From a virus (lineage: Duplodnaviria > Caudoviricetes), in the IMG/VR virus record IMGVR_UViG_3300035703_000121, positions 1 to 55,516 of that record: a DNA stretch of 55,516 nucleotides; one strand, 5' to 3'. The position numbers and the translations under genes were made by a program. Position 1 is the stretch's first letter; each line of letters starts with the position of its first letter. The notes under the pieces are model-generated. The model was given only the letters and a program-made list of their open reading frames with translations, had not been told where the DNA came from and did not search any database. Below, in pieces: positions 3,842 through 52,065 of the stretch.

Positions 3842-3861
3842 TTTTCTATTTTTAAATGGTT

Positions 3862-5618: not shown

Positions 5619-6011
5619 TTAAAGTTTATTTGATAAGTAATCGTTAATAATTCCGGCAGTCATTTCGAATGACCAACTAAAGCAGGCAAAATATCCTTTG
5701 GCTCTTAGCTGTTTGATGGTGGCTTGCTGACCTTCCAAGTGTTCATCTTTCAATAACTCTCCGTTTATTTTGAAAGGGCTTTTTACTTTCAATTCAATAA
5801 AAAGACCGTTATATTTTTCGTTTGGTTCAAAAATTAGCAAATCGGGCGTTTTAAAGCCTTCTTTTTGAATTTGCTTATTTCTTTTCTGTTGTGGGATAGT
5901 TAGCTTAACTGATGCTATCGTATCGCTGAGAAAAAGCATTTTAGGATATTGAATAGAAATCCATTTGCATATTTTCTTTTGTAATTCAAATTCTGGTTGG
6001 CTTTTACTCAT
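5619..6011 (-). CDS. VRR-NUC family nuclease
   Basis: PDLLIF...LFIELK...Q...L..KGY PD-(D/E)xK pattern. Confidence 0.75.
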   Translation of the reverse strand: MSKSQPEFELQKKICKWISIQYPKMLFLSDTIASVKLTIPQQKRNKQIQKEGFKTPDLLIFEPNEKYNGLFIELKVKSPFKINGELLKDEHLEGQQATIKQLRAKGYFACFSWSFEMTAGIINDYLSNKL

Positions 6012-16294: not shown

Positions 16295-16969
16295 ATGTAT
16301 AATAAAAATTTAATAGAGCGCGTTTCTATTATGAAATTTGATAACCCAGTTACTCAAATATCAAATGATTTACAGTATTCAAAAGGTACCGTAAGTAGCT
16401 ATTTAAATGGGAAAATTAAGGCAAGTAAAAACTTTATTGAAGATTTTGCAAACTTTTACAAACTCATTAAAGAAGAATTGATTGATTCAAAACCACAAAC
16501 AATTCCTTTAAATACAGAAATCGTCAAATCAAAAAACAGTGATGCTTTAAATAAGAATGCTGGATTGCTCGTTCCTTTTTATGATATTGATTTTTCAGCT
16601 GGTGCTGACATAGCAACCATAGATAATAATCAAGTTCAACCGGACTACTACATGGATGTTCCGGAGTTTTCCGGTTGTACTGCTTTCAGAGCGTACTCGG
16701 ACAGCATGGAGAAATTAATAAAAAGCGGCAGTATATTGTTTGGAACTAAAGTTGATGAGTGGAACATACATCTTGAGTATGGTCAAATTTATGGCATCAT
16801 CTGTAGCGATGGAAGACGTTATTTAAAATACATACGACGACACCATGAAAATTCAAAAGAATATTTTCTTTTGAAAAGCGAAAATGAATCGTATGATGAT
16901 TTTGATATTCCTAAAATTGCCATTAGATCAGTATGGCTGATTCACGGATGGCTCAATAAGAGAACATAA
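16295..16969 (+). CDS. CI-like repressor with S24 peptidase domain
   Basis: N-terminal HTH (SKGTVSSYLNG); VPFYD, SAG, DSME, YLKYI, LKSEN. Confidence 0.85.
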   Translation: MYNKNLIERVSIMKFDNPVTQISNDLQYSKGTVSSYLNGKIKASKNFIEDFANFYKLIKEELIDSKPQTIPLNTEIVKSKNSDALNKNAGLLVPFYDIDFSAGADIATIDNNQVQPDYYMDVPEFSGCTAFRAYSDSMEKLIKSGSILFGTKVDEWNIHLEYGQIYGIICSDGRRYLKYIRRHHENSKEYFLLKSENESYDDFDIPKIAIRSVWLIHGWLNKRT

Positions 16970-16982
16970 AAACAAATATATC

Positions 16983-17537
16983 ATGAAACAACTATTTACA
17001 TTATTGGCTCTGATTTTTATATCAACGGCCATTGCCCAGGAAAATGAGTTCGTATTAGGACCGGAAAAAATGACGGACTATATTGTAATTCCATTTGAAG
17101 GAAAAACACAGCAAGAGCTTTATAAAAAGTCTTTGCAATGGATTGAGTTTGCATACAAAAATCCAAAAGAGGTTCTTAAAGGAAATATTGAAAACGAGTA
17201 TATCAGATTTCAAGGTTCTAAAAAAGGACTAATTGTAATGAATGCATTGGGAAAACATTACTATGATGGAAGATATACAATTGAAATCTCCTTTAAAGAT
17301 GGTAAATGCAAATTTGATATCATAGAAATTGAATACTATACGCCGTATTCTCAATACAACCCCGGTGGATGGAATTTGTTTGGAATGGATAACACTTCGG
17401 CTTATTTTAAAAAAGGTGAGCTAAGAAGCAATTGCAAGTACTTTACTGAAATCCCTCAATACTTTAATAGTTTAAAGGATGAATTTATTGCTTTTATGAA
17501 AAGTGAAAATTTACCAACTAAAAATTCAGAATGGTAA
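16983..17537 (+). CDS. Secreted DUF4468-like protein (lysogenic cargo)
   Basis: Sec signal ending AIA-Q; ELYKK..W, ISFKDGKCKF. Confidence 0.65.
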   Translation: MKQLFTLLALIFISTAIAQENEFVLGPEKMTDYIVIPFEGKTQQELYKKSLQWIEFAYKNPKEVLKGNIENEYIRFQGSKKGLIVMNALGKHYYDGRYTIEISFKDGKCKFDIIEIEYYTPYSQYNPGGWNLFGMDNTSAYFKKGELRSNCKYFTEIPQYFNSLKDEFIAFMKSENLPTKNSEW

Positions 17538-17538
17538 A

Positions 17539-17817
17539 ATGTACAATTCCGACAAAGCCATATTAAGACTTATCGAGCTATTAATTTTCGAGAAGAAAAT
17601 TAGATTTGAATTTGAGTTTGCTAATTCTATTGATATGCTTCCTCAAACCATTTCAAGAATTAAGTCTGGAAAAAATCACTTTACAGCGACACACATAGAA
17701 TTGATCTGCAGACGTTATAATGTGAATGCTAATTGGATATTCGGAATTCAAAAAAATGTTTTTAACGATAAAAACAGTATAGAAATTATTGATTTTTATA
17801 CTTCAAAAACCAAGTAA
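17539..17817 (+). CDS. XRE-family HTH protein (probable start 17539)
   Basis: PQTISRIKSG...NVNANWIFG. Confidence 0.75.
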   Translation: MYNSDKAILRLIELLIFEKKIRFEFEFANSIDMLPQTISRIKSGKNHFTATHIELICRRYNVNANWIFGIQKNVFNDKNSIEIIDFYTSKTK

Positions 17818-17948
17818 ATAAAGGCTTTAATAGTGTTTCATTGCCGACAATGTTAAACGACAATAAAACCTCAAAAAATAGTCAAAATCAGAATAAAAAA
17901 CTGCCGTAAATACAGTAATTACATTGAAATATTTGTTGGGTAATGTTT

Positions 17949-17991
17949 TTCATAACCCTGAGGTCGAGAGTTCAAATCTCTCTCTCGCTAC
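17949..17991 (+). tRNA. 3' half of tRNA-Met(CAT) (att core, not a full gene)
   Basis: TTCATAACCCTGAGGTCGAGAGTTCAAATCTCTCTCTCGCTA; no D-arm or 5' acceptor strand upstream. Confidence 0.85.
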
Positions 17992-18003
17992 AAATAAAAA
18001 AGA

Positions 18004-18036
18004 ACCTCAACCCTTATCCCAACAGGGGTTGAGGAC
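18004..18036 (+). terminator. Hairpin downstream of the tRNA fragment
   Basis: CCTCAACCC..GGGTTGAGG inverted repeat. Confidence 0.55.
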
Positions 18037-18103
18037 TTCTAAAAGTCACTTTCGATTCATGTAGTTACAACAAAACGGCAATGTAAACGTCAATGTAATT
18101 ACC

Positions 18104-19291
18104 ATGAAAAAACTATCCAACAACTGCTCCCGAACAGAGGTTTGGGCTTCTCCCGATAATTGGGAAACTACAACAGCAAAATCTGCTCTTAAAAAAAACT
18201 GGTACGTTCAATGTGATTTTTACGATCCATTGCATTCAAAAAAATATCCAAAAGGATTTCCTTACCGGAAAAAATTAAACAAATTCAAGACTCTTGAAGA
18301 GCGCAGAGCTGCTGTAAAATTACTTATGGTTGAAATACCCAAACTATTAGACCAAAAAGGATATAACCCGATAACCGGTAAGTTTATGATTGAAGAAGCG
18401 CCGGAACAGATCATTGCATTAAATCCACAAATGCATTTTATCAAAGCGCTAACCATAAACTATCCTTTACTTTCTGTTTCTGAAGGTGTAAAAAAAGAAA
18501 TTAAGAGAATTGTAAAAAAGATTGATCAGTCGGCAATTGATTTGAATTTGAATATTGCAATTTGTCAATTACATAGTGGGCATATCCGCGACCTATTGGA
18601 CCGGTTAAACCTTACGCCAAACGAATACAACAAATACCTTACGCATTTATCAATAGTTCTTTCCGATTTAGTAGAAAAGCGCATGTTGTTTCACAATCCT
18701 ATTCGCGACATCAAGAAGAAGAAAACCATAAAAAAAATGCGAGAAACTCTCGAAATCTCGCATCTTCAACAGATTTTCAAAGTTTTGAAAAGCGAACATT
18801 ACACCTTTTATCGATACGGAATGATATTCTTCCATTCCGGCGCGAGAACATCAGAGCTTTTTCGGGTTCAAAAAAAGCATGTCAATTTGGAGAAGCAGGA
18901 ATATAAGGTTACAATAATGAAAGGCGATAGTTATAAAGAAGTGAAGAAAGTAATATTGCCTAATGCTTTACCTTTTTGGGAAGAGATTATTTCGGAATGC
19001 TCCAATGAAAATGATTTTTTATTCACTCGAAATTTGCAACCCTCATTAACACCAATACAGCCTTACCAAATTACAAAGCGATGGAAAAGGTTGGTTAAGG
19101 ATAAACTATCGGTAACTGCAGATTTCTATTCTTTGAAACATTTGTTCCTGGATGAATTGGATAAGGTTTCGGTTCTTGCCGGACCAATGGCCAGCCACAC
19201 GACAAATGTTACCGAGAAAAACTATTTGTTTGGCCGAGAAGGACGCAAGAATGAAGCATTAAAAAAGGTGAGAATTAATGTAATTACTTAA
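18104..19291 (+). CDS. int: Tyrosine integrase of element A
   Basis: SGARTSE, KG, YSLKH, ASH, Y; adjacent to attP. Confidence 0.88.
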   Translation: MKKLSNNCSRTEVWASPDNWETTTAKSALKKNWYVQCDFYDPLHSKKYPKGFPYRKKLNKFKTLEERRAAVKLLMVEIPKLLDQKGYNPITGKFMIEEAPEQIIALNPQMHFIKALTINYPLLSVSEGVKKEIKRIVKKIDQSAIDLNLNIAICQLHSGHIRDLLDRLNLTPNEYNKYLTHLSIVLSDLVEKRMLFHNPIRDIKKKKTIKKMRETLEISHLQQIFKVLKSEHYTFYRYGMIFFHSGARTSELFRVQKKHVNLEKQEYKVTIMKGDSYKEVKKVILPNALPFWEEIISECSNENDFLFTRNLQPSLTPIQPYQITKRWKRLVKDKLSVTADFYSLKHLFLDELDKVSVLAGPMASHTTNVTEKNYLFGREGRKNEALKKVRINVIT

Positions 19292-28724: not shown

Positions 28725-31314
28725 TTAGTAAATCACTACCTTTCAAGGTAACATCAGCAACCATAGGAATCACAGTACCACCGCCACGCTCTAATTGGTT
28801 ATACAATCTTCTTTGTTGGCGATCATTCAAAATAAGCTCACCACTATTCACACGCGCTAAAATACGGTCACCGTAAAAAGAACTACCACCTACAATACCA
28901 CCATCGGCAAAAGCACCTATGTTAGCAACTTGAGATTTAACAATACTTCCTAAAGCAATTAATGCAACCCCGGCAGCTATTGCACCAAATCCTTTTAATC
29001 CAGTTAAAGCTTTTTTTATCGCCTCAATAGCGGTACCTGTTGATATAGCTATTTTACCTAATTGAATTAACATATTTCCTAAACTTGAAAAAATCAATTC
29101 ATTAAAGCCTTTTAACAAACTACCACCATTAAAAGCACCTGCAATAGCTTCACCAATACCCGAAGCAAAACCCTCTAATGTAGATTCAATAGCAGCATTA
29201 AAATCTTCTTGTAAAGAAACAGCGGTACTTTTTAAATCTTCAACTGTTGTTTTTACTTTTTCAGTACCTTTAATATCATTAATAACCAATTGAGTACCGG
29301 TTATTAAATCTTCAAACTCCTGGTATTTTCTTTTACCTTCTTCTGTGGCATTAGAAAAGCGAGATTGTAATTCTCTGTAATAGGATATTTGATTTTCAAG
29401 ATCTTCTAAAGAAAAAGTTGGAATAAAAACACCTTCAGAATCAGCATTAGGAATTTCCGGTTTAGGAATTTTGATTCCTTTTTTAGAAATGGCATCAATT
29501 TGCTTTTGGTAGCCATCTATTTTGGTTTTTAAGATATCAAACTCAGTAGAATTGGTAGCCACTTCCCTTTGCGCTTTTCGAGCCAATTCAATAAGGCTTT
29601 CATAGTAAGCAATGGTTCCAACTTTTAAACCACCAACCGCTTCAACCTGCACACCGGTTTGAGCAATAATAGCTTTTTGGCGTGCGATTTCATTTTCGGT
29701 TAGCTTTGCAGATTTTTGGTCCAATTCTGATTTAACACCTAAAAGATATCTATCTTCTTTTTGCGCTAAAGCATCAGCATCAATTTGTTCCTGCTTAATT
29801 TGTTTTAAAAAACGGTATTGGGTAGCTAATAATTCATTTTTAGTTTTATAAACATCAGCAGTTCCTTTTGAAATACTACCTTCAGCTAAAAGTTGTTTCT
29901 CACCACCTTTATTAATTTCAATGATCCTTTCACGGATTTTTTGTATTTTTTGTTGGCGCTCGATTTCACCTTCTAATCTTTCTTGCGCTCTTTTATCGAG
30001 TTCATTACCAATAGCTGCCGCTTTTGATTTATCAAAAATAGCTTGGCGCAATTCTTTGTAAATACCAACAGACTGTGCGTTCTTTAAATTTTCAAAATCG
30101 ATATTTTTAAAGTACGCAGGATATAATTCCTGTAAACGTTGGTAGGCCGCTTTACGTTCGTCAATACCCAACTTAACATCAGTTGAAGATTTATACAATC
30201 TATCCAAAGTAGATACTTCAGACAAAGCTGCTTTATTTCCGTTGGCAATAGCTGTATTTAATGATTGTTGAGCCGTTACAACTTTAGTTTGGTTTGAATA
30301 CCATAAAGCAAATCCGGCAGCAATTGCCGCAATAGCAACTGCCAAAGCTGTATAAGGATTAGCCGCTATTAAAGCAGACATTGCTGAAAAAGCATCTTTT
30401 AAAGCATTGAACTTAGTAATTAAATTAGGGATAAACGTAAGCAATGCACCGGTAGCAGAAAGCAATGGTCCAATTGCTGCAGCAATACCGGCAATAACCA
30501 CTATGGTTGTTTTGGTTTCCGATGATAAATCGGAAAAGCTTTTAATTAAACCATTCACAAAAGTGATAGCTTTAGTAAAAGCCGGTAAGATAACACTACC
30601 TAACTGCTGTCCTACTTGTTTTAAACTTTCAGTAAAAATTCGGGTTTGGTTAGCAGCACCGCCACCGGTACGCGCAAAATCGCCCTGGGCGTTTTTAGTA
30701 TTAGCCAATATGTATGCGTAGCGCAATTGCACTTTTTCGGCTTGCGAAAAGTCTTTAAACTGTTTGGTGATTCCTTGCGATAAAGCAAATGCCTGAAGAT
30801 TGGTTTCAGTCATTACAATACCGAGTTTTTTAAGCGATTCCGTTTCGCCCGAAAATACTCCGGTTAATGCGGTATTGGCAATATCAATAGAAATGTTTTT
30901 GAATGATGCCAAGTCACCGGCTAAACCCACCAACGATTTAGACATATCGGCAGCGCGATCTACAGGCAAGCCCAAAGAAGTAGCCATATCACCAAAAGTA
31001 GCCGCCATATCCAAGGCAGTTCCTTCGGATATACCAAAGGCAGTTAAGGATTCTTTTGCAAACTCACGAACCGCTGCCGATGAATCGCCAAAGGCCACAT
31101 CAACTTTATTCAAACTTTCCTGGTAATCACTGGCAAACTTTACCGAAGCGGCTCCGGCTGCCAATAAAGGTGTTGTTAAGTAAAGCGATAAGCCATTGCC
31201 CACACTTTGTAGTTCACGTCCGTATTGGTTAATCTTACGGATGCTATTTTGCATTTCGCTTGAGAAGCCTCGCAAATCAGCACTAAACTTAACATTGATA
31301 GAAGCTAAACTCAT
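28678..31314 (-). CDS. Tape measure protein
   Basis: Ala/Gly-rich helical; GETESLKKLG; FADGGIV...RVNSGELIL. Confidence 0.9.
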   Translation of the reverse strand: MSLASINVKFSADLRGFSSEMQNSIRKINQYGRELQSVGNGLSLYLTTPLLAAGAASVKFASDYQESLNKVDVAFGDSSAAVREFAKESLTAFGISEGTALDMAATFGDMATSLGLPVDRAADMSKSLVGLAGDLASFKNISIDIANTALTGVFSGETESLKKLGIVMTETNLQAFALSQGITKQFKDFSQAEKVQLRYAYILANTKNAQGDFARTGGGAANQTRIFTESLKQVGQQLGSVILPAFTKAITFVNGLIKSFSDLSSETKTTIVVIAGIAAAIGPLLSATGALLTFIPNLITKFNALKDAFSAMSALIAANPYTALAVAIAAIAAGFALWYSNQTKVVTAQQSLNTAIANGNKAALSEVSTLDRLYKSSTDVKLGIDERKAAYQRLQELYPAYFKNIDFENLKNAQSVGIYKELRQAIFDKSKAAAIGNELDKRAQERLEGEIERQQKIQKIRERIIEINKGGEKQLLAEGSISKGTADVYKTKNELLATQYRFLKQIKQEQIDADALAQKEDRYLLGVKSELDQKSAKLTENEIARQKAIIAQTGVQVEAVGGLKVGTIAYYESLIELARKAQREVATNSTEFDILKTKIDGYQKQIDAISKKGIKIPKPEIPNADSEGVFIPTFSLEDLENQISYYRELQSRFSNATEEGKRKYQEFEDLITGTQLVINDIKGTEKVKTTVEDLKSTAVSLQEDFNAAIESTLEGFASGIGEAIAGAFNGGSLLKGFNELIFSSLGNMLIQLGKIAISTGTAIEAIKKALTGLKGFGAIAAGVALIALGSIVKSQVANIGAFADGGIVGGSSFYGDRILARVNSGELILNDRQQRRLYNQLERGGGTVIPMVADVTLKGSDLLIAFNRAKNQSERRGE

Positions 31315-32097: not shown

Positions 32098-32484
32098 TCA
32101 TTTTTTTTCGCCATCTTGTTTTGCATAGAAGGCTTTTACATCTTCAATTTCCTGAAGGAATTTTTCGTAATCGGCTTCAGTCATTTTTTTGATAACTGCT
32201 TCTTCAAATCCAAAGGAAATAATATCTGTTGGTTTAAAGTTTCTTTTTTGATGCGGCATCATACACGCCCACATAACGTTTCGCATTATGATAAGTCGCT
32301 CCTGACTTTCCGCATCTTTTTCTTTTTGGTAACCGGTAAGCTTATTGTTAAACTCCCGATAGGTTAACTTGTAAAACTGTTTTGGTGATAGCCTTAGTTG
32401 TCCAAAAGCAATAGCTTCGAGATCATCCCAGGTTAATTCTACTTTTTGTTTGCTCCCGTTTTGATCGGAGCTTTCTGCTTTCCC
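32098..32484 (-). CDS. Tail assembly chaperone T segment (expressed by -1 frameshift)
   Basis: Open -1 frame LTWDDLEAIAFGQLRLSPKQFYKLTYREF... after GGGAAAG at 32478-32484. Confidence 0.8.
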   Translation of the reverse strand, partial: GKAESSDQNGSKQKVELTWDDLEAIAFGQLRLSPKQFYKLTYREFNNKLTGYQKEKDAESQERLIIMRNVMWACMMPHQKRNFKPTDIISFGFEEAVIKKMTEADYEKFLQEIEDVKAFYAKQDGEKK

Positions 32485-37730: not shown

Positions 37731-38949
37731 TTCCTTGCTTTTTAATATTAGCTTCTAATTGTTTTTCGGTGTAAGTATTGGTTGGTGTTAGGTATTCATC
37801 TAACAATTTTGGCCCGGCATTCATTTCTTCTAAAGCGCGGCCTTCATTTCGATTCATCAATCCGTAGTACACTGCTTTTCCGATGTACTCGATTCGGGTG
37901 CGCATATCGGCACGAACCAAAACGTTTAGATTACCTCGGATGAAGTATTCTTTAACTTTGTCGGCATCGGTAAATAGTTTGAATTGTAACTCCTGTTCGA
38001 AGTTGGTGCAATGCGGCTGAATAGTATCGGAAACGTGATCTAAAGATTGTTGCTCGATATTATTATTGGTGGATTGCTTTAATGATTTGATTTTGTGCAG
38101 CGCAATGTTAAACCAACGCGCGATATCTTCGATAGTTACTTGGTTTAATTCTACGATTTGCGCTTCTTCTGGTGTTATCGATATAGAATTAAAAGTCATT
38201 CCTTCATCGAGAACTGTAACCCTATCCGGTGACTTTTCGGCCATTGCATTTTTAAAGGCGGTAACAATTGCTTTTTTAGCTGCCGGATTTGTTGTTTTAT
38301 CGGTAGTAATAATACCCTGGCGAACTCCTTTGTTTTCCAAAACGGTTTGGGTGTAATCTTGCAACTCTAAAGCAATATTCATTTGCTGTGCTGCATAGCT
38401 TATTACCGAAACACCTACTAAGCCGTTAAGCGAAAAAAGCTTGATGTGAATTACCTCGGAAGCCAATAACGGTTTTCTGTAGCCTTTGATGTAGTAAAGC
38501 ACTTCGGCACCGTTTTTCTTTACATCGGTAACATCATCCCATTTTACAAAAACAAGCTCTACCGGAATGCCACGCGAATCGGTTTTGATTACCGATAAAC
38601 CGTTACCGCGCAATAAGGCAGAAGTCCACATGGTTTTTTTCCAGGTGAACGGTGTCATGTGCGCATTTGGGCGATCATTAAGGAGTTTGTGAACGTAGTG
38701 GGATTTATCTTTTACGCTGTTGCCATCTTGTTTGTAGTAAACGAAAAAAGGGATTTTAGCCAAATCGTTGCTGATTTGCTCTACAGCGTTATAAACCGCG
38801 GAAAGTTTTAAAGAGTTTTTATAGTTTGAAGGTGAAGTTTTTGCACCAACACCGCCGGAACCAAAAGAGAAAACACCATCGAACAGACTGCCGCCCTGGT
38901 AATTACGATTTGTGCCGGAAAACGTTGATTTAAAGACCTTATCAAACAT
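37711..38949 (-). CDS. HK97-family portal protein
   Basis: AVYNAV..IS..LA, PNAHMT, LRGN, EVIHIK, IARWFNI, NEGRALE. Confidence 0.92.
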   Translation of the reverse strand: MFDKVFKSTFSGTNRNYQGGSLFDGVFSFGSGGVGAKTSPSNYKNSLKLSAVYNAVEQISNDLAKIPFFVYYKQDGNSVKDKSHYVHKLLNDRPNAHMTPFTWKKTMWTSALLRGNGLSVIKTDSRGIPVELVFVKWDDVTDVKKNGAEVLYYIKGYRKPLLASEVIHIKLFSLNGLVGVSVISYAAQQMNIALELQDYTQTVLENKGVRQGIITTDKTTNPAAKKAIVTAFKNAMAEKSPDRVTVLDEGMTFNSISITPEEAQIVELNQVTIEDIARWFNIALHKIKSLKQSTNNNIEQQSLDHVSDTIQPHCTNFEQELQFKLFTDADKVKEYFIRGNLNVLVRADMRTRIEYIGKAVYYGLMNRNEGRALEEMNAGPKLLDEYLTPTNTYTEKQLEANIKKQGNGKNSA

Positions 38950-38968
38950 GATATACTTTTTAACAATG

Positions 38969-40120: not shown

Positions 40121-40398
40121 TTTTTTTGATTTTGATAGTAACGTTTCAGTGATTTTCGGAAAGCTTCGTTATTGGTAAACATAAATTTACCAAATAAATC
40201 GAAGTATGTGTTGTTAACCTGGTGAAAGGCATCTTCGTTGGTTTTTGCTATTGGCAGCAGTTTAAAATAGTGATCAAAGAAACCTTTTCGGGTTCCGAGT
40301 TGCTTCATTAGTTCATTTTCGCGGCGTAGTTTTTCGATTTCAAGGCGTAAGGCGTTTTCTTCGTTGGGCGTCATAAATTGGGCGGTTTTGGTTAGCAA
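40117..40398 (-). CDS. Hypothetical protein after TerL (candidate late regulator)
   Basis: Small basic helical ORF overlapping terL; regulatory role is inference. Confidence 0.55.
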   Translation of the reverse strand: MLTKTAQFMTPNEENALRLEIEKLRRENELMKQLGTRKGFFDHYFKLLPIAKTNEDAFHQVNNTYFDLFGKFMFTNNEAFRKSLKRYYQNQKK

Positions 40399-42140
40399 TA
40401 AAATTCTTCATCGGGATTGTTGTATATACTTTCGTTAGTTTCTTCATCGGGAGATAAAACACCGGCCAAGGCATTAATTAAAGCTGCAATTCCATCGATT
40501 CTTTTGCCGTGCTTATGACTTGCGCCTTTACTGATCATAATGTTACCCTTACTATCTTCGATAACGACACACCCGGAAAGCATCCAGGCCATTACCGGAT
40601 TGTTATCGTGTTTTATTTTGCCTTCGTAAATTAATTTTTCCAACATTTTTGTTGGGAAGTTGAGCACCGGCATTGTTTGCTGAAGCTCGGAAACCTTAAC
40701 ACCGGCTTCTTCCATACGAGGTGTAAGGCCACGCGCATTCCACGGATCTACTTCGACACGCTGAATGTTTAAAAAACTGTAACGCGATGCAATAAAATCC
40801 AAAATATAATCGTGATCCACACGGTTGCCGGGCGTTGCTATCATATAGCCATTATCTACCCAGTAACGGTATGGCACACCATCGTTTCGGCTGCGTTTAT
40901 CGATATTATCTTCCGGGCAAAACAGAAATGGTTTTACATAGTAAAAGCCTTCTTTATCGGCTTCAGATAGCAGCACAAAAGCTGTAATATCTGTAGTACT
41001 GGATAAATCTAAACCGCCATAACAACCTAATTCTGTGAATATTGATAACGGAATTTCTTTCAAATTATTGCATAATTTAGTAGGATTTTTATTGATATCG
41101 TTTTGCATCCAAATTTCGTTTGGAATCCAAACTTCGAGCGCATCTACCCACATATTTAAGTGCTTGGTTTTGAAGTTTGGTATTTTAGATGGCTGATTGA
41201 TTGCCTTGGTATATTCCACCCGAATACCATCGATTGAAAGACCGTTACCCAAAAGCGGATTGGCCTTGTACCAAACGGATTCATCCTGCCAATCATCGCC
41301 TTCATCAAGATCATGAATCATTATCCAAAGGGCATTATCTACCTTGCGACCTTCGAGCACTTCGATAACGCTATCTTCATAGTTTTTGCAAACGCTCATG
41401 GTAGCGGCACCGGCCGTAGTAATGTGATAGGTTAACGGCTGCAAACGGCTTACGGATGATGATTCGAGGTTTTCCTTTACGGTATCATCGCGGTGGGCGT
41501 GATATTCATCGATGATAGAAAATTGGGCGTTGATTCCATCCTGGGTTTTACTATCGCCACCCAAAGGCATCATTTTACCGCCGGAGCGATGGAAGTGAAT
41601 TACTTTTTGGTGTTTTTCGAACCTTAATCGGCGCAGCAACGGATTTGCGACCGGCGATTCGATAAAAGATGCTGCCTGACTAAAGCAAAGCTTTGCCTGT
41701 TCTTCTTTGGTTGCTCCTACATAGACTTCGGCTTCCATTTCGCCATCGAGCGACATCATGTAGAGTGCCAATCCGGCCATTTCTGCCGTTTTACCGTTTT
41801 TCTTGGCACGTTTGTCGTACACGGTGCGAATGCGGCGCGTGCCATCGGGATTTTTCCATCCAAATATGTTGTAAATGGTGAATTGTTGGAACGGCGCCAG
41901 GTTAAATGGTTTGCCGGCCATTTTTCCTTTGGTGTGGTTTAAAAAATCAGGGAAGAAATCTACTGCAAACATTCCTTCGCGATGGTTTAAGGTGTAACCG
42001 GAAGCTTCGGCAGTTTCTATCCAGGTGTAAAAACGTTCTACAGCTTGGCGAATGCGTTTTCCCACCAATATTTTACCGCTACGCACGTTGGCAGCGTATT
42101 GGAAGGGAACGGATTGAAGCATTTCTTTGGTTGGGCGCAT
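40392..42140 (-). CDS. terL: Terminase large subunit
   Basis: AKKNGKT, IIDEYH, ITTAG, KANP, GLDLS, RIDG. Confidence 0.95.
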   Translation of the reverse strand: MRPTKEMLQSVPFQYAANVRSGKILVGKRIRQAVERFYTWIETAEASGYTLNHREGMFAVDFFPDFLNHTKGKMAGKPFNLAPFQQFTIYNIFGWKNPDGTRRIRTVYDKRAKKNGKTAEMAGLALYMMSLDGEMEAEVYVGATKEEQAKLCFSQAASFIESPVANPLLRRLRFEKHQKVIHFHRSGGKMMPLGGDSKTQDGINAQFSIIDEYHAHRDDTVKENLESSSVSRLQPLTYHITTAGAATMSVCKNYEDSVIEVLEGRKVDNALWIMIHDLDEGDDWQDESVWYKANPLLGNGLSIDGIRVEYTKAINQPSKIPNFKTKHLNMWVDALEVWIPNEIWMQNDINKNPTKLCNNLKEIPLSIFTELGCYGGLDLSSTTDITAFVLLSEADKEGFYYVKPFLFCPEDNIDKRSRNDGVPYRYWVDNGYMIATPGNRVDHDYILDFIASRYSFLNIQRVEVDPWNARGLTPRMEEAGVKVSELQQTMPVLNFPTKMLEKLIYEGKIKHDNNPVMAWMLSGCVVIEDSKGNIMISKGASHKHGKRIDGIAALINALAGVLSPDEETNESIYNNPDEEFYC

Positions 42141-42148
42141 AGGGTTAA

Positions 42149-42394
42149 TTATAATTTTGATTCATCATTCAATTCTTTGGAATTATTTAGCATATATTCA
42201 CTTAATTTTGAATACGCCTCTTGGGTATTTTTAATATCAAAACCCCTAAACTTTACACGTGCCGGATAAACATTCTTAATTTCTTCATTTTCAATTTCAA
42301 ATACTAAAGCCCATCCGAAAATATGAAGTATTTGATTAATGATAAGAACTAAACCTGTACTTCTAAATTCTGACCATTCTTTTTTAGTTACCAT
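42149..42394 (-). CDS. Hypothetical protein
   Basis: NQILHIFGWA..YPARVKFRGF. Confidence 0.65.
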   Translation of the reverse strand: MVTKKEWSEFRSTGLVLIINQILHIFGWALVFEIENEEIKNVYPARVKFRGFDIKNTQEAYSKLSEYMLNNSKELNDESKL

Positions 42395-42563
42395 AATTTT
42401 TATTTTTTACTGTTGTTAATTGGCCCATATTTTTGTTTACTCCGGCGCGAAGATTTGCTACATCCTGTTCAGTCCATCGGCTTAAAGGTTTTAACCATAG
42501 GTAGTGTTTACGGTTGGTGTTTAGTAGCTGCTGCGCTTCTTGTTTTGAAATTAGTACTTCCAT
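42384..42563 (-). CDS. 59-aa protein (not in ORF track)
   Basis: MEVLISKQEAQQLLNTNRKHYLWLKPLSRWTEQD...; resembles the C-terminus of 6008-6385. Confidence 0.6.
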   Translation of the reverse strand: MEVLISKQEAQQLLNTNRKHYLWLKPLSRWTEQDVANLRAGVNKNMGQLTTVKNKNYGN

Positions 42564-42565
42564 AG

Positions 42566-43396
42566 CTAAAGCGATATTGAGTTTAACGGTGATTTTACTT
42601 TGCTAATGATAGCATCGGAAATGTGCGTGTACACCATAGTGGTTTTTACATTGCTGTGGCCGGCTAATTTTTGGATGATGTTGATATCGATTCCATTTTC
42701 GACCATGTGGGTAAAACAGTTGTGGCGCATTAGGTGCGTGTACACTCGTTTTTTGATTCCGGCTTTGTCTGCCAATTGTTTCATTACTTGACCGATGCTT
42801 CGGGATGAATACTGATCTGTAAATTGGCCGCCTAAAATGTATGTTTTGGTTTTGTAGGCGTACCAATATCTTTCGAGCAATTTAAGCAGCGGTTCCGGTA
42901 ACATTACTTGGCGGTCCTTTTTGCCTTTTCCGGCAATGATGTTGATTATCATTCGGCTTCTGTCGATATCGGACCAACGTAAGTTTATTACTTCGGAAAC
43001 TCGCAATCCGCAAGCGTAAAGTAACGCCAGGATAACTTTGTGCTTTAGGTTTTCGCATACATCAAACATAGCTTGTACTTCATCCTGGGAAAGTACTATT
43101 GGCAGTTTCTTTTCGGATTTTGGATAAGGTATTTTTGCCACTTTGTTAGGCATTTTTACGGTATGCTTGTAAAATGCATTCAATGCGCACAAACGATGTT
43201 TGCGGGTGTTGATTGTTTCAGCCTGAAGCAACCAAAGCTTTATTTTTTCGTTATCGATGGCTTTGGGTTCTTTCTCGGCTTTGAAGTGATTCAAAAAACA
43301 CCATACTTGCGAAGCATAGTTTTTTCGGGTTGCTTCGGAGTTGTAAATCAATTGAATATCAATCGAAAATTTTTGATGCCAGTTTAGAATATCCAT
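42566..43396 (-). CDS. IntI/XerD-like tyrosine recombinase (probable start MDILNW at 43396)
   Basis: KLPIVLSQDEV, YACGLRVSE, GKGKKDR, HLMRH, LAGHSNVKTTMVYTH. Confidence 0.9.
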   Translation of the reverse strand: MDILNWHQKFSIDIQLIYNSEATRKNYASQVWCFLNHFKAEKEPKAIDNEKIKLWLLQAETINTRKHRLCALNAFYKHTVKMPNKVAKIPYPKSEKKLPIVLSQDEVQAMFDVCENLKHKVILALLYACGLRVSEVINLRWSDIDRSRMIINIIAGKGKKDRQVMLPEPLLKLLERYWYAYKTKTYILGGQFTDQYSSRSIGQVMKQLADKAGIKKRVYTHLMRHNCFTHMVENGIDINIIQKLAGHSNVKTTMVYTHISDAIISKVKSPLNSISL

Positions 43397-43434
43397 AGTG
43401 TAATGTTTTGATTTTGTTGGTGGTTTTGATGGTG

Positions 43435-43463
43435 GGATACATATAGTAGTTATCTTCAATTGC
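43435..43463 (+). other. attI-like site / cassette left end (G|TTATCTTCAATTGC)
   Basis: GTT core just upstream of the recombinase; nearly complementary to 43976-43991. Confidence 0.6.
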
Positions 43464-43666
43464 TACGATTCATTTTCTAAATGACGTTTTTCTAATTGGT
43501 AATAAATATCAGCTATCATTTTAGGAGTTGTTTCTTTATCATACGCCATTGCTTCTCCACCGTGCAAAATGAATAGTTTTGATATTTTAAATAAGTGAAA
43601 AATAATTCCAATAATATTAAGCATTAAGAAAAATGGCAATCCGAGTATTCGTTTTAAGTATTTCAT
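43463..43666 (-). CDS. Cassette ORF 2, small membrane-associated protein
   Basis: 67 aa with hydrophobic N-terminus. Confidence 0.6.
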   Translation of the reverse strand: MKYLKRILGLPFFLMLNIIGIIFHLFKISKLFILHGGEAMAYDKETTPKMIADIYYQLEKRHLENES

Positions 43667-43956
43667 TTGTTTATTTCTTTTAAAATTTCTTCACTAAACT
43701 TATAAATAAGCTTTTTGTTTGTAAGGTATAAACTTCCAAAATCGCCACGTTTACGAAGTTCAACCATTCCTTTAGCACTTCTGATTTTATCTGCGAAATC
43801 AACCATATATTTAAAAGAAGTATCTTTTTCGTTTGGTAATCTTCCATCGTGCATAATTCTAAAAATCTCAACGCTAATCCAGTTATCAATTTGATTATTC
43901 CACTCTTTATGTGTTTCATCAATATTGTATTTTTTAAATAATTTTTCTTTTGTCAT
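43663..43956 (-). CDS. Cassette ORF 1 (probable start MTKEKLF at 43956)
   Basis: 97 aa; the longer ORF call runs into the attC hairpin. Confidence 0.65.
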   Translation of the reverse strand: MTKEKLFKKYNIDETHKEWNNQIDNWISVEIFRIMHDGRLPNEKDTSFKYMVDFADKIRSAKGMVELRKRGDFGSLYLTNKKLIYKFSEEILKEINK

Positions 43957-43984
43957 AAAATCTGTTTTAAAACCCGCAACTGAA

Positions 43985-44120
43985 AGATAACAGCGTCTAT
44001 AAAAAATGTCTATTTTGAGCACATTTGTAATCATCAGTATTTATTAGGTTTGTTAGTGTTTTATTTGTTATTATTGTCTTGTTTGGGCACGCCACTTCTT
44101 ATACACGCAAAACGTTATCC
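43985..44120 (+). other. attC-like recombination site (~136 bp)
   Basis: AGATAAC-A-GCGTCTATAAAAAATG ... CACTTCTTATACACGC-AAAAC-GTTATCC imperfect inverted repeat. Confidence 0.7.
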
Positions 44121-44555
44121 GTTCATTTTCCTTTTCAATAATTCATCAAACAAATCGTATTGCCCTGGGTTAACATCTTTGAGGTCTTTATCAGATTTTG
44201 GATCAAGTCCAAAAATTTTACAGCATTTCAAAATGCTATCTTCGGCTTTATCCTTCAAGGTTACTTCTGCGCTGATGTTTTTAGCACCGGAAGAAAACTT
44301 TTGTATGTAACCAGTACCCATGTTTTCATTATTCAAACGTTGGATTTCGCGAAGCGCCCATTCAAACTGCGCAGCTGATTCGGCATAAACTTCCAAAGCT
44401 GTTAGATAGATATCTTTCAATCTTTGGCGTTTTGCCAAATAGGTTCCCATTATTTTATAATGCTTTTTAGCAGCATCGGTTAAATAAATTGGCGGCTTTG
44501 GACACTTTAACAAAGTATCTTTTCCTTCATTGATACTAACAACACCTCTTTCCAT
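44115..44555 (-). CDS. terS: Terminase small subunit, P27 family
   Basis: PKPPIYLTDAAKK, LEVYA, FGLDP. Confidence 0.85.
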   Translation of the reverse strand: MERGVVSINEGKDTLLKCPKPPIYLTDAAKKHYKIMGTYLAKRQRLKDIYLTALEVYAESAAQFEWALREIQRLNNENMGTGYIQKFSSGAKNISAEVTLKDKAEDSILKCCKIFGLDPKSDKDLKDVNPGQYDLFDELLKRKMNG

Positions 44556-44559
44556 AAAA

Positions 44560-44675
44560 CTTTAATTTACTTTACTTTACCCCCCCTTACTTTTTATACT
44601 TCGAGTAAAATTTCGATTCAACAGCGATGTAGGTGGTATTACACTTTACGAGATTTTATCCCATTACCCCCTTTT
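44560..44675. other. Probable cos/packaging region
   Basis: Between HNH and terS as in HK97-like cos phages; C runs; cut site not identifiable. Confidence 0.35.
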
Positions 44676-44980
44676 TCACCACCGGATTTTTTATTATGAC
44701 ATTCTTTTGACATTGATTGCAACTCATTATCATCAAACGGATCCAAGTTGTTATCCAAAAGAAACTTTAAACCTCTCACGTGATCCACTACTTCAGCAGG
44801 CTTTATAACTTGAATTAACTTGCATTCATTGCATTCACAAATAGGATGCGATTCACGATATGCTTTAGACTTCTTACGCCACTTCCAGGAGTTATAGAAC
44901 CAACTCATATCAATAGGCCTTTCGAACTCTTTTCGTTCAGGCTGCCAACTTCTTTTTATTTTCTTCGGAGCGTTTGCCAT
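44639..44980 (-). CDS. HNH packaging nuclease (HK97 gp74-like)
   Basis: FYNS.KWR, PICEC..C, VVDH, LQSM..CHNKK. Confidence 0.8.
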   Translation of the reverse strand: MANAPKKIKRSWQPERKEFERPIDMSWFYNSWKWRKKSKAYRESHPICECNECKLIQVIKPAEVVDHVRGLKFLLDNNLDPFDDNELQSMSKECHNKKSGGEKGGNGIKSRKV

Positions 44981-44982
44981 AA

Positions 44983-46458
44983 CTAAAACGGACTATCATC
45001 TTCACCAAACGCTTCACCAGGTGATGGCTTCGGTAACTCTTTATTGTCGATATATTCTACCCTTTCAAAGCTATCGGTAACATCAACAAACTTTGTCTTA
45101 TCGCCCACCCAACGCAGTAAAGTAGTTCCAACAGAACCGGCACGATACTTAGCAAATATCACTTCACTATTTGCTCCGGCATTAATTAAACTATGTAAGC
45201 TATCATCGTATTGAGTTTCATCAATATCGATGTGGTAATACTCTGGGCGATAAAGGAACTGTACAATATCTGCATCCTGTTCAATCGCACCACTATCACG
45301 CAAATCAGATAACAACGGTCTTTTACTTGCACCGCGCGTTTCACATTGGCGGCTTAACTGCGACAATGCTATAATCGGTATATTCAATTCCTTCGCCAAC
45401 TTCTTTAACCTTCTACTAATGGAAGATATTTCAGCTTCACGATTACCCTTAACACTTCTATCAGTCATTAGCTGAATGTAGTCGATAATCAAAACTTTAA
45501 TGCCATACTTGCGCTGCCAAAGCTTTGCCTGTATTACGATATCAGTAATATCAGTTTTACCCGAATCATCAATGTAAAGCGGATATTTACTCATTCGCTC
45601 CTGGTGTTGTGTATAGCTTTGAAAGTAATCGTTCTTTTCAAATCCCTTTTTCAACAACTGCCCAAGATGAAAGCTTGTGTCAATTGCAACTGCACGCGCC
45701 GTTAATTGCTCAACAGACATTTCCAAAGAGATAATTCCAACCGCTTCATCCTTCTTACAATTCTCAATGGCGCACTTCAAAACATAACTCGTTTTACCCA
45801 TACCAGGACGAGCAGCAACAATCACCAAATCTTGTTTGCGATAACCACCGGTAGATTTATTGATAATAGAAAAGCCAGTATCAATACCAACCAACTTCAC
45901 TTCATCTTTGTTATTGCTTAACAACTGTACACTTTCTTTCAAGTTTTGCAATGCAGCCGGAAAACTCATTGTAGTTCTTCCGGTAGATACCGAATCTTCT
46001 ATGCTATCAAAAGCCTTTTGCCAACCACGCAACAAATCAAAAACATCCACACCATCATCATAAGCAAAAGAAATGTTCTGACTGCTAAACATGATAATCT
46101 TACGGCGCATCCAGTGCTGTAAAACAATTCGGCAGTGGTAATCAATGTGAGCGCTACTCGATATCTTTTGTGTAAGCTGAATCAAATAAAAATCACCGCC
46201 GGCATTCTCTAACTGCTTTTGCTTTTTTAACTCATTCGATACCGTAAGCATATCAATCGGTTCGCCTTGGTTGTATAGCGATACAATAGCCTGGAATATC
46301 AATTGATGTTCATACTTGTAAAAAACTTCAGCAGTAGGCAATATCAACATTGCATCTTCCAATCCCGATTTATCAATCAGCATAGCACCCAAAATTGCTT
46401 GTTCTAAGTCAATTGCTTGTGGTGGAAGTTTGCCGTTTATTGTTTCTAAATTTTCCAT
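44983..46458 (-). CDS. dnaB: Replicative DNA helicase
   Basis: PPQAIDLEQAILG, AARPGMGKT, IDYIQL, LSQLSR, LRDSGAIEQDAD. Confidence 0.95.
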   Translation of the reverse strand: MENLETINGKLPPQAIDLEQAILGAMLIDKSGLEDAMLILPTAEVFYKYEHQLIFQAIVSLYNQGEPIDMLTVSNELKKQKQLENAGGDFYLIQLTQKISSSAHIDYHCRIVLQHWMRRKIIMFSSQNISFAYDDGVDVFDLLRGWQKAFDSIEDSVSTGRTTMSFPAALQNLKESVQLLSNNKDEVKLVGIDTGFSIINKSTGGYRKQDLVIVAARPGMGKTSYVLKCAIENCKKDEAVGIISLEMSVEQLTARAVAIDTSFHLGQLLKKGFEKNDYFQSYTQHQERMSKYPLYIDDSGKTDITDIVIQAKLWQRKYGIKVLIIDYIQLMTDRSVKGNREAEISSISRRLKKLAKELNIPIIALSQLSRQCETRGASKRPLLSDLRDSGAIEQDADIVQFLYRPEYYHIDIDETQYDDSLHSLINAGANSEVIFAKYRAGSVGTTLLRWVGDKTKFVDVTDSFERVEYIDNKELPKPSPGEAFGEDDSPF

Positions 46459-50537: not shown

Positions 50538-50876
50538 ATGAAAAATTTATTATTCATCGCTTTACAATTTGAACAATCATCTTCAACTGATTTTACAGAA
50601 ACTTTAATTACTTATTTCTTTATATCTGTAATTGTATTTCTGATTGGAGCATTTTTAACAAGATTAGTTTTTAGCATTTCAACTTTTTTAAAACATCAAA
50701 AAGCAAAAACACTTTTGCTTATTAAAATTGCTCGTAAAAATGGAGTTTCAGAAAAAGAATTAGATGCAATTTTAGCTATTACCGATCCTAACATTGGTGA
50801 ATTTACACATTTAGTAAACGATAAATCAATCACCGAAATCGATAAGTTAAAGTTTGAAGAAACTAAAAATCAATAA
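50538..50876 (+). CDS. Membrane protein (probable start 50538)
   Basis: One long TM segment. Confidence 0.6.
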   Translation: MKNLLFIALQFEQSSSTDFTETLITYFFISVIVFLIGAFLTRLVFSISTFLKHQKAKTLLLIKIARKNGVSEKELDAILAITDPNIGEFTHLVNDKSITEIDKLKFEETKNQ

Positions 50877-52065
50877 TTTTCCATAACGCTTCATCCCTAA
50901 CCTTCATCGGGTAGCGGTCTTTATAATAATTATCTACATCATTGCGTTCATGGCCCATTAGTTCGCGCAGTATATCTTCTTCAATACCCAATCGTTTACC
51001 AATGGTAGCAAAGCTATGCCGGGCAACTTTTACGCTCAAATTGCCGCCGGCAGGCATTACCTCAATACCACAATCCTGCTGCACCATTTTAAGCACCTTG
51101 GCGTAACGGCTTCTAAAGCTTTCGTAAATATCTTTTTGCTTATCCCAAGGAAACAACCATTCACCAGGGCATTCGTATTTTTTCAATATAGCGGCAGCTT
51201 TCGGATGTATTTTTAAGTCAATTGGTTGCCCGGTATTGGTTTTACTTCTTTCAAAAAACACACGGTCCTTAATCACGTTGTTTTTCTTCATGTAATACAA
51301 GTCAATCAAATCACAGCCGCCAAAGTAAAAGCCAAGCAACCACATATCTACATACTTTTGCCAGGAAGCGGCCACAGTAGCCGTTTCCAATAACCGTATA
51401 GCATCGGCATCAATATGCTTTTTTCGGCTGGCATAACTCTTAACACTTAAACCCGCAAAAACGCCCGCAAACGGCTTTTCATCAAACAACTTATACCTAA
51501 GCACCGCTTTGTTATAAATACTGCGTAAAGTGCGCAAATACAAATGCACAGTAGCCGGTGCATTACCTATGCCAAGCAAATACCTTTTAAATCGGTTGAG
51601 CAATTCATAATCCAATTGCACCAAAAGCACATCTTCACCAAATGGCCGGAACCGGTTCAGCACGTTTTCGTAAACTTTAATATTCCCTAACATTTTATTT
51701 TGAAGCTTTGGGCTATGCTTACTATAGTCATCAGAAAGCTTTTTCATTTCAGCCACCAAGCCATTGGCAAAATCATAAAATAAGATATCAGAAACCTCTT
51801 TTTCAAAAATGGCCGCCAAAAACAAATCGGGATTGGTAGGATTATTAGCTTTTAACCTTCGGGCACGCATTTTCAAATCCATGATCATTGGCGCCAAAAA
51901 ATCAAACTCGGGATGTTTTTCAGTAATCATTTCGGCAGCAGCATTAAAATACCTAATTTCGCATTCATAAATATCACGTTGCCGAGCAATACCCTTGTGC
52001 GATACTTTTAAGTATAAAAACGATTTTCCTTTAGCATCCACCCGAACCTTAAAACGATAAGTCAT
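50863..52065 (-). CDS. int: Tyrosine integrase of element B
   Basis: SAM-like YLRTLRSIYNKA; RSKT, VARHSFAT, LMGH, Y. Confidence 0.88.
   Translation of the reverse strand: MTYRFKVRVDAKGKSFLYLKVSHKGIARQRDIYECEIRYFNAAAEMITEKHPEFDFLAPMIMDLKMRARRLKANNPTNPDLFLAAIFEKEVSDILFYDFANGLVAEMKKLSDDYSKHSPKLQNKMLGNIKVYENVLNRFRPFGEDVLLVQLDYELLNRFKRYLLGIGNAPATVHLYLRTLRSIYNKAVLRYKLFDEKPFAGVFAGLSVKSYASRKKHIDADAIRLLETATVAASWQKYVDMWLLGFYFGGCDLIDLYYMKKNNVIKDRVFFERSKTNTGQPIDLKIHPKAAAILKKYECPGEWLFPWDKQKDIYESFRSRYAKVLKMVQQDCGIEVMPAGGNLSVKVARHSFATIGKRLGIEEDILRELMGHERNDVDNYYKDRYPMKVRDEALWKIIDF

Follow-up and report, generated by a model that had tools for sequence, protein, structure and literature searches.

A recombinase gene, an attI-like junction and exchangeable hairpin-bearing cassettes form a likely integron-like platform in phages of Bacteroidota

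We analysed a 55,516-bp stretch of phage DNA, hereafter the window, which covers the whole of one virus record (IMG/VR IMGVR_UViG_3300035703_000121; Caudoviricetes), and focus on a tyrosine recombinase gene, termed Rec, and a 665-bp gene cassette lying upstream of it among the terminase genes. Every gene around this locus is on the minus strand, in the order DnaB-like open reading frame (ORF), Cys/His-rich ORF, terminase small subunit (terS), two cassette ORFs, Rec, two small ORFs and terminase large subunit (terL) (Table 1). A sequence-only reading of the window had proposed that Rec, a core site beside its gene and the cassette make up an integron-like system. Comparison with related viral contigs and with natural variants of the same phage leads us to regard the region as a likely phage-borne cassette platform that works like an integron.

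Rec consists of a Phage_integrase catalytic domain and an N-terminal SAM_4 domain (Pfam) and carries the motifs KGKKDR and TTMVYTH, in agreement with the 276-aa tyrosine recombinase with KGxKDR and TTxxYTH motifs described from sequence alone. Against NCBIfam models even its best scores stay under the curated cut-offs, those of the Xer families included (XerA_Arch 190 of 220 bits, XerC 171 of 335, XerD 167 of 330), and it reaches 114 bits with NF011946, for which the cut-off is 435. Its PDB matches are led by two archaeal XerA-type structures (4a8e, 127 bits; 5hxy, 116 bits), followed by Vibrio IntI4 (2a3v, 113 bits), to which the alignment is split into two stretches. Because Rec residues 174-203 stand opposite IntI4 residues 177-249, Rec lacks the IntI-specific insertion, whose region spans 29 residues in Rec and 72 in VchIntIA; the absence of this extra I2 segment had also been predicted. 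The alignment of Rec with VchIntIA reaches into the C-terminal tail, and the two printed XerA-type chain alignments stop 8-9 residues sooner. These alignments place Rec in the Xer/IntI group as a member without I2, distinct from classical IntI.

In the window, the two ORFs expected after the core are both present on the minus strand, and neither the 67-aa ORF B nor the 97-aa ORF A matches any Pfam, NCBIfam or PHROG family. Homologues of ORF A with 50-56% identity occur in other viral contigs, in one of which (L035) the homologue sits between two attC-like elements matched by the covariance model R1 described below. The inverse core complementary to the cassette start, implied by the sequence-only reading at ~43977, was located at 43976-43991 and recurs in 50 distinct cassettes of relatives. 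In the window the two cassette ends are complementary at 9 of the 12 positions beyond GTTA, with one indel, a level reached by 0.65% of non-partner pairs; a test with shuffled 20-nt arms gave p = 0.31, and a repeat finder run on 42000-44700 did not place these repeats among its 25 longest inverted pairs, owing to the indel. The attC-shaped hairpin proposed for this cassette has its arms and its cores, being bounded by TAAC and GTTA with AAAAC after arm CACTTCTTATACACGC, and on the minus strand the arms pair at 13 Watson-Crick and 2 G·T positions, with 1 mismatch among 16 positions, around a loop of ~84 nt. The structure is weak, and since the window hairpin alone is not above chance, the case rests on relatives and on population variants.

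The fixed side of the system lies beside the recombinase gene. Read in the sense of Rec, a junction motif of TAAC followed by TACTATATGTAT precedes the Rec ATG by 46-49 nt (48 nt in the window) in all 20 upstream regions compared; these regions are the window and 19 loci, with two duplicates, two loci without upstream DNA and one unrelated locus left out. The core described from sequence alone at 43449, ~50 bp upstream of the recombinase, coincides with this site, the stretch GTTATCTTCAATTGC at 43449-43463 beginning 53 nt from the ATG. The leader between motif and start codon is partly conserved. To the left of the motif (Rec sense) DNA and genes differ between loci, the inner half of the junction varies with the adjacent cassette, and the array end always abuts the motif. 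Further full copies of the motif along the array were considered and rejected, as a position-weight scan gives one per locus. Its presence in all 20 regions, together with variant contigs that break there (below), points to a fixed attI-like site beside the integrase gene, as in an integron.

Related phages with the same recombinase had been expected to carry different cassettes at the junction, and they do. The same architecture is found in 17 viral contigs, with arrays of 1-8 units comprising 50 distinct cassettes and 38 distinct hairpins. Eight units are present in L014, six in L016 and L020, five in L007 and L010, four in L006 and L022, three in L004 and L005, two in L001, L008 and L009, and one in the window and four other loci, several arrays being shortened by contig ends. 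An inverted copy of the ~16 nt before TAAC lies 230-1000 bp upstream at p <= 0.05 in 16 of 20 loci, the failures being L011 and L015, which have too little upstream DNA (<130 nt), L014 (p 0.07) and the window (p 0.31). The copy begins GTT(A/G), with GTTG in L008. At position 11, read on the same strand, a G occurs at the unit start and a T at the unit end; this G/A difference is found in 40 of the 50 distinct cassettes and never swaps sides in those 40. Among units reached by walking along the arrays, 35 of 38 score at least 13/16, compared with 1.3% of 605 control TAAC sites outside arrays, and none of the eight high-scoring control sites has the position-11 G/A. A cassette's own ends match at 9.44 of 12 positions versus 4.65 for non-partners, figures affected in part by selection, since cassettes had to pass a score threshold during the walk. 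That selection did not extend to hairpins or spacing, and inter-unit spacing falls into two narrow classes, the search having been bounded only at 20-230 nt.

Between the cassette ends lies one tightly packed gene, sometimes two or three, unrelated between loci. The hairpin precedes the ORF within each unit, the longest ORF is on the Rec strand in 49 of 50 cassettes, and the median coding fraction is 0.90. Arrays differ between close relatives and cassettes recur in them at other positions: an 848-bp unit is third in L004 and second in L010, a 193-bp unit third in L010 and sixth in L020, and a 712-bp unit second in L001 and first in L020. Homology of the 193-bp unit runs from the TAACG before the hairpin to the TAACG after the ORF, and the mobile unit would therefore be hairpin plus ORF, cut within the core. 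Ten of the 20 largest cassette ORFs encode DNA methyltransferases (one below the Pfam cut-off), three are PAPS-reductase-like (one below cut-off), and of the remaining seven one is a further tyrosine recombinase, another resembles RNA ligases and five are without a match.

Some further features of cassette content were noted in passing. A tyrosine recombinase of 326 aa, with SAM_4 and Phage_integrase domains and ~25% identical to Rec, is one of three ORFs in a 1,944-bp cassette (L020, 3175-5118). Units of 32-102 bp with no ORF, barely more than two complementary ends, occur at L021 ~5918-5949, L020 2522-2572 and L018 2168-2269. In the window, a 403-aa gene with the PAPS-reductase domain found as cassette cargo in relatives belongs to the phage backbone (331-1542).

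The elements between units are conserved in structure. Each of the 38 distinct elements has the folded form TAACG-stem (20-25 bp)-loop-return stem-TGTTA, and their lengths form two classes, ~70-90 nt and 114-130 nt. Hairpin halves pair with their own partners at -17.9 kcal/mol versus -8.0 (standard deviation 2.4) with non-partners, and in 28 of 36 the own pairing lies below the 1st percentile of non-partners. Covariance model R1, built from two short-loop elements, matches elements in L002, L007, L014, L022 and L035, as well as in two cultured phages, Leef_1 and P12002L. In a 14-row alignment fitted by this model, in which the seed sequences matched on their reverse strand supply two rows, pairing extends to 96.5% of cells, versus 64.6% after shuffling and 33-44% after sliding; compensatory changes occur in 21 of 24 pairs, and the observed values were reached in none of 500 shuffles. 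The relatives thus carry the structure-conserved imperfect palindromes with AAC/GTT cores that characterize integron sites, the window's own site being a weak one. Other approaches were uninformative: MAFFT misaligned the stems of 27 long-loop elements and RNAalifold predicted no pairs, a four-sequence long-loop alignment was likewise out of register, and single-sequence folding separates the AT-rich long-loop hairpins poorly from shuffles (sense-strand z -2.6 in L020, -0.4 in L010).

The two strands of these elements are not equivalent. On the ORF-sense strand the G lies 5' in 73 of 76 G·T pairs, and for 30 of 37 elements folding is more stable on this strand than on its complement (Wilcoxon p = 3.7e-5). 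Judged from the geometry, the better-folding strand would be the bottom strand of the integron convention. Stem pairs 5/112 and 24/92 are G·U in 11 of 14 rows and look like conserved wobbles, not drift; pair 5/112 joins the G after TAAC with the T before GTTA. By eye, asymmetric spacers are seen next to the cores. Long loops share an A-rich stretch, ACAAAACAAT then TTAAATTAAA (alignment columns ~90-120), and several units have an ORF whose start lies in the loop and which runs on across the 3' stem and GTTA arm.

Near-identical phages replace the window cassette exactly. We compared contigs of four public runs, told apart here as X1 to X3, over 42300-44700. The X1 run, which probably represents the source sample, is identical to the window. 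An 11.8-kb X3 contig is ~97% identical at 42572-43452 and 44111-44617 and has 494 other letters in place of 43453-44110, and X2 has one contig that follows the window as far as 43453 before departing from it and a second that agrees with it from 44113 on. The break points of these variants coincide with GTTA at 43449-43452 and the core at 44113-44117, the limits of the 665-bp cassette. The limits of 43450-44114 proposed from the window alone are thereby supported by ~97% identical natural variants from two other samples, which break at 43452/3 and 44111-3.

Table 1. Positions of features at and around the recombinase locus, in window coordinates unless another phage is named
Feature	Position	Strand	Remarks
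DnaB-like ORF	44983-46458	minus	named by eye
Cys/His-rich ORF	44639-44980	minus	113 aa
terS, terminase small subunit	44115-44555	minus	PF05119 45 bits, phrog_83; flanks the cassette (outside it)
Distal GTTA core	44114-44117		fixed outer array boundary in this phage; overlaps terS stop codon (TTA 44115-44117)
attC-like hairpin region	43992-44113		arms 43993-44008 GCGTCTATAAAAAATG and 44093-44108 CACTTCTTATACACGC
Inverse-core arm, extended R''	43976-43991		GCAACTGAAAGATAAC; inverted 43449-43463 plus one extra base and the family-wide A/G difference
Cassette ORF A	43663-43956	minus	97 aa from ATG at 43956 (123 aa if read from 44034)
Cassette ORF B	43463-43666	minus	67 aa, hydrophobic
Cassette	43450-44114		665 bp; delimited by G↓TT at both ends (inferred crossover points)
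Rec-proximal cassette end, R'-derived arm	43449-43463		GTTATCTTCAATTGC; complementary to 43976-43991
attI-like junction	43437-43452		ATACATATAGTA (conserved outer half) then GTTA, on + strand
Leader from junction motif to Rec start codon	43397-43436	minus	partly conserved; side-by-side upstream regions of window and 21 loci
Rec, tyrosine recombinase	42566-43396	minus	276 aa, ATG at 43396; PF00589 138 bits, PF13495
Two small ORFs between Rec and terL	42384-42563, 42149-42394	minus	
terL, terminase large subunit	40392-42140	minus	downstream of Rec; PF03354 and PF20441
Tyrosine integrase	18104-19291		395 aa; 1.1 kb downstream of S24 peptidase, repressor-like gene (region 16295-19291)
Tyrosine integrase	50863-52065		400 aa, SAM_5 domain
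Leef_1 (L026) junction and elements	2185-2332, 3678-3956, 4348-4506, 5860-5875		
P12002L (L027) elements	29973-30078, 32126-32279, 38015-38118, 38816-38950		

Homologues of Rec are widespread in sequence collections. A scan of viral contigs found 23 loci with 60-81% identity, and more than 120 protein clusters listed from a large protein collection are at least 72% identical to Rec, all 276-279 aa long and named at most 'XerD'. Homologues above 60% identity also occur in metagenome-assembled genomes of Flavobacterium, a Chitinophagales member, a Saprospiraceae member and one unclassified organism, where in some cases the module lies inside long contigs. The genome context of the Rec-plus-array module varies, upstream of terL in some loci and elsewhere in others; in L014 it adjoins a reverse-strand integrase-like match. 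Contigs end less than 3.3 kb upstream of Rec in 17 of the 23 related loci, which suggests that array heterogeneity breaks metagenome assemblies, and in L006, L008 and L016 no more than 16 bases separate the contig end from a unit boundary.

Cultured phages offer more distant parallels. No close cultured-phage relative of Rec was found, the best being the integrase of Polaribacter phage Leef_1 at 37% identity, and a nucleotide search of cultured phages gave a single match of 54 bases within terL. In Leef_1 a similar junction motif, AGCTAAC then CCCCTATATAC, stands 55 nt upstream of this integrase, and three upstream intergenic regions have, by eye, the form TAACG-hairpin-GTT(A/G), one of them matched by model R1 at E = 0.02. 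Polaribacter phage P12002L has TAACG-hairpin-GTTA elements between methyltransferase and Mom-like genes; its record annotates no integrase, and a search for Rec homologues gave none at E <= 1e-20. In Cellulophaga phage Ingeline, whose integrase is 29% identical to Rec, no clear array was seen. In the available text, Bartlau et al. 2021 (PMC8776804) read the integrases of Leef and Ingeline as an indication that these phages are temperate. Qi et al. 2023 (PMC9892861), in the portion available, describe classical integron parts and integrase-less attC clusters in 21 phages, with methyltransferase cassettes in the clusters of P12002L, and report that IntI1 recombines one predicted P12002L attC, possibly one of the elements found here, at G↓TT. 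The literature we found contained nothing on a dedicated Rec-type enzyme with a conserved junction.

We consider it likely that Rec recombines a fixed site upstream of its own gene with structured sites on mobile cassettes. Crossover would fall at or next to G↓TTA on the + strand, with ATACATATAGTA as the attI-like outer half. In ORF sense a cassette would consist of a long imperfect hairpin, GTTA and ~12 nt, one to three ORFs, ~12 nt complementary to the start, and TAAC; circularization would bring these parts together in a single long bipartite stem centred on the crossover, and the folded ORF-sense single strand would be the substrate. Cassettes would be inserted at the Rec-proximal site and could be excised or exchanged between arrays. 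Because their ORFs are co-directional with Rec and the late operon, they may be expressed by read-through. The cargo is rich in DNA-modification genes, and the platform therefore probably lets the phage swap anti-restriction and other accessory genes. The layout, read on the + strand, matches the int-attI-cassette platform that the sequence-only reading had called functional; that last word goes further than the data, in which neither circle nor empty site was observed.

Several results weigh against this interpretation. No excision circle, and no empty attI in a close relative, was seen among the variants, for which contigs only were compared and circle junctions were not sought. The window hairpin is unremarkable by itself: its duplex energy of -11.0 kcal/mol is equalled by 11% of non-partner half pairs, folding of its two strands, a check suggested by the sequence-only reading, is no better than in shuffles (z +0.86 and +0.96), a motif-plus-energy scan finds ~30 equally good places in the window versus 5-15 in shuffles, and model R1, coming from two short-loop relatives, has no match at this long-loop site. 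Because the window holds a single cassette, its copy could be decaying. Among relatives, the own-versus-cross figures for cassette ends carry the selection described above, the 14-row alignment is model-fitted, and G·U-rich stems would fit an RNA-level function equally. Rec falls below the integron-integrase cut-off (TIGR02249, integrase_gron, 173 of 265 bits, in two stretches), lacks an insertion that Smyshlyaev et al. 2021 (PMC8138268), in the text available, call essential for integron function, and is connected to the cassettes only by adjacency. P12002L and L035 carry such elements with no Rec nearby, so a linked Rec is not required for their persistence and perhaps not for their movement.

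These Rec-less elements, together with the lack of an observed recombination product, leave some room for an explanation in which hairpin-flanked modules are shuffled by homologous or illegitimate recombination at short cores and stems and Rec is an unrelated neighbour such as a resolvase. Stem-loop-flanked mobile modules of this kind are found in T4-type phages. We nevertheless think shuffling unlikely, because in every one of the 20 regions, and in different genome contexts, arrays stop at a single conserved site whose distance from the Rec start is 46-49 nt, because unit boundaries fall inside a 5-nt core, and because the complementarity of a cassette's own ends, with its fixed position-11 G/A, is explained by a circular intermediate cut at a defined point and not by homologous exchange.

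A second explanation would make the hairpins RNA elements that process, stabilize or attenuate the operon transcript, with gene turnover as a side effect. It would suit the bias of 73 of 76 wobbles to G·T on the transcribed strand and the position of the elements between co-directional ORFs, some of which start in the loop. It leaves unexplained the complementary cassette ends, the Rec-adjacent junction and the replacement of whole units at cores, a search of Rfam gave no relevant family match, and an RNA role could in any case coexist with recombination; as a full account we judge it very improbable. We give equally little credence to Rec as a lysogeny integrase or a Cre/loxP-like enzyme of cyclization or dimer resolution, with the conserved upstream motif as its single attP- or lox-type site, placed by coincidence next to hypervariable DNA. 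That one conserved site adjoins a tyrosine recombinase gene near terminase genes would be in keeping with such a role, as would the temperate reading of the Leef_1 and Ingeline homologues. The window, however, has two other tyrosine integrases, one of them downstream of a repressor-like gene, the inner half of the site changes along with the neighbouring cassette, which a recombinant junction would be expected to show, and the variable DNA is organized in units with matching ends. Finally, the ~15-nt inverted repeats at 43449-43463 and 43976-43991, 512 bp apart beside a tyrosine recombinase, might recall a phase-variable segment flipped by Rec (inverton or shufflon), an idea we rejected as barely credible on orientation and replacement data: 49 of 50 cassettes share one orientation, the position-11 difference keeps its sides in 40, and the variant contigs show replacement, with no strand-changing joint among those compared.

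Elsewhere in the phage, the two further integrases announced by the sequence-only reading were both found, at 18104-19291 and 50863-52065, giving three tyrosine recombinases in one phage record with Rec included. A second variable spot follows directly on the Rec stop codon: 404 letters of different sequence stand in the X3 contig between 42555 and 42572, and identity to the X2 contig is lost before 42572. In the window this spot showed neither a hairpin nor a core. The genes between Rec and terL vary among loci.

Returning to the integron-like interpretation, we favour, with some reserve, a broader view in which phages of Bacteroidota carry their own class of complete integrons, with a minimal I2-less relative of IntI that recognizes long folded sites, a reactive strand of those sites encoded by G·T wobbles, and arrays that serve as exchangeable anti-restriction stores. 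To our knowledge, integrons have been regarded as bacterial. If a widespread lineage of phages has a recombinase, a docking site and a stock of cassettes of its own, the integron principle would exist in a second form that looks independent, and the rapid exchange of DNA-methylase and other counter-defence genes among these phages would be explained. On this view Rec-type enzymes could be intermediates between the Xer recombinases and the integrases of classical integrons, so that the origin of integron integrases from Xer-like enzymes would become testable, and some of the 'integrases' that mark flavobacterial phages as temperate could be cassette recombinases instead. Recombinase biochemistry would also gain a small enzyme apparently able to act on structured sites although it has no IntI insertion, and Polaribacter phage Leef_1 provides a cultured, possibly related system.

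Among known systems, Xer recombinases (XerA, XerC/D and XerH, acting on dif-type sites) are closest to Rec in sequence, as the XerA_Arch score and the 4a8e and 5hxy matches indicate, and share its two-domain size and the lack of an arm-binding domain. Rec differs from them in falling below all Xer cut-offs and in its sites, one symmetric site in Xer systems contrasting with arrays of structured, variable sites and a junction whose inner half varies. The integrases of Leef_1 (37% identity) and Ingeline (29%) are annotated in the available literature as temperate markers (PMC8776804). The phage clusters of attC sites lacking integrases (CALINs) of Qi et al. 2023 (PMC9892861) resemble the present arrays in the TAACG-hairpin-GTTA elements and methyltransferase cassettes of P12002L; in the available text they are reported with no dedicated recombinase and read as integron fragments, whereas here a conserved Rec and junction accompany the arrays.

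Classical integrons differ from the phage system in several respects. Their integrase has the insertion that is missing from Rec, which also scores below the integron-integrase cut-off. Their cassette ORFs run away from attI, driven from Pc, with attC downstream; those of the phage are on the opposite strand and point toward Rec in 49 of 50 cassettes (no promoter search was made), and are therefore co-directional with Rec and the terS-terL operon. Complementarity between cassette ends is ~7 nt in classical integrons and ~16 nt, with a fixed G·T, in the phage cassettes. In classical sites extrahelical bases set strand choice; the asymmetry measured in the phage elements is that of G·T wobbles. 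The carrier here is a phage genome of Bacteroidota. The likenesses are equally specific. In both systems a tyrosine recombinase gene adjoins a fixed insertion site, and arrays consist of mostly single-ORF cassettes in one orientation, with occasional ORF-less cassettes and differences between close relatives. In both, the sites are imperfect palindromes of ~95-160 nt (cassette ends included), conserved in structure and not in sequence, bounded by AAC/GTT and asymmetric in the fold of their strands. The cassette start is complementary to its own inverse core in both, and a G↓TT crossover on the + strand, as in classical integrons, would fit the unit boundaries observed in the phage arrays.

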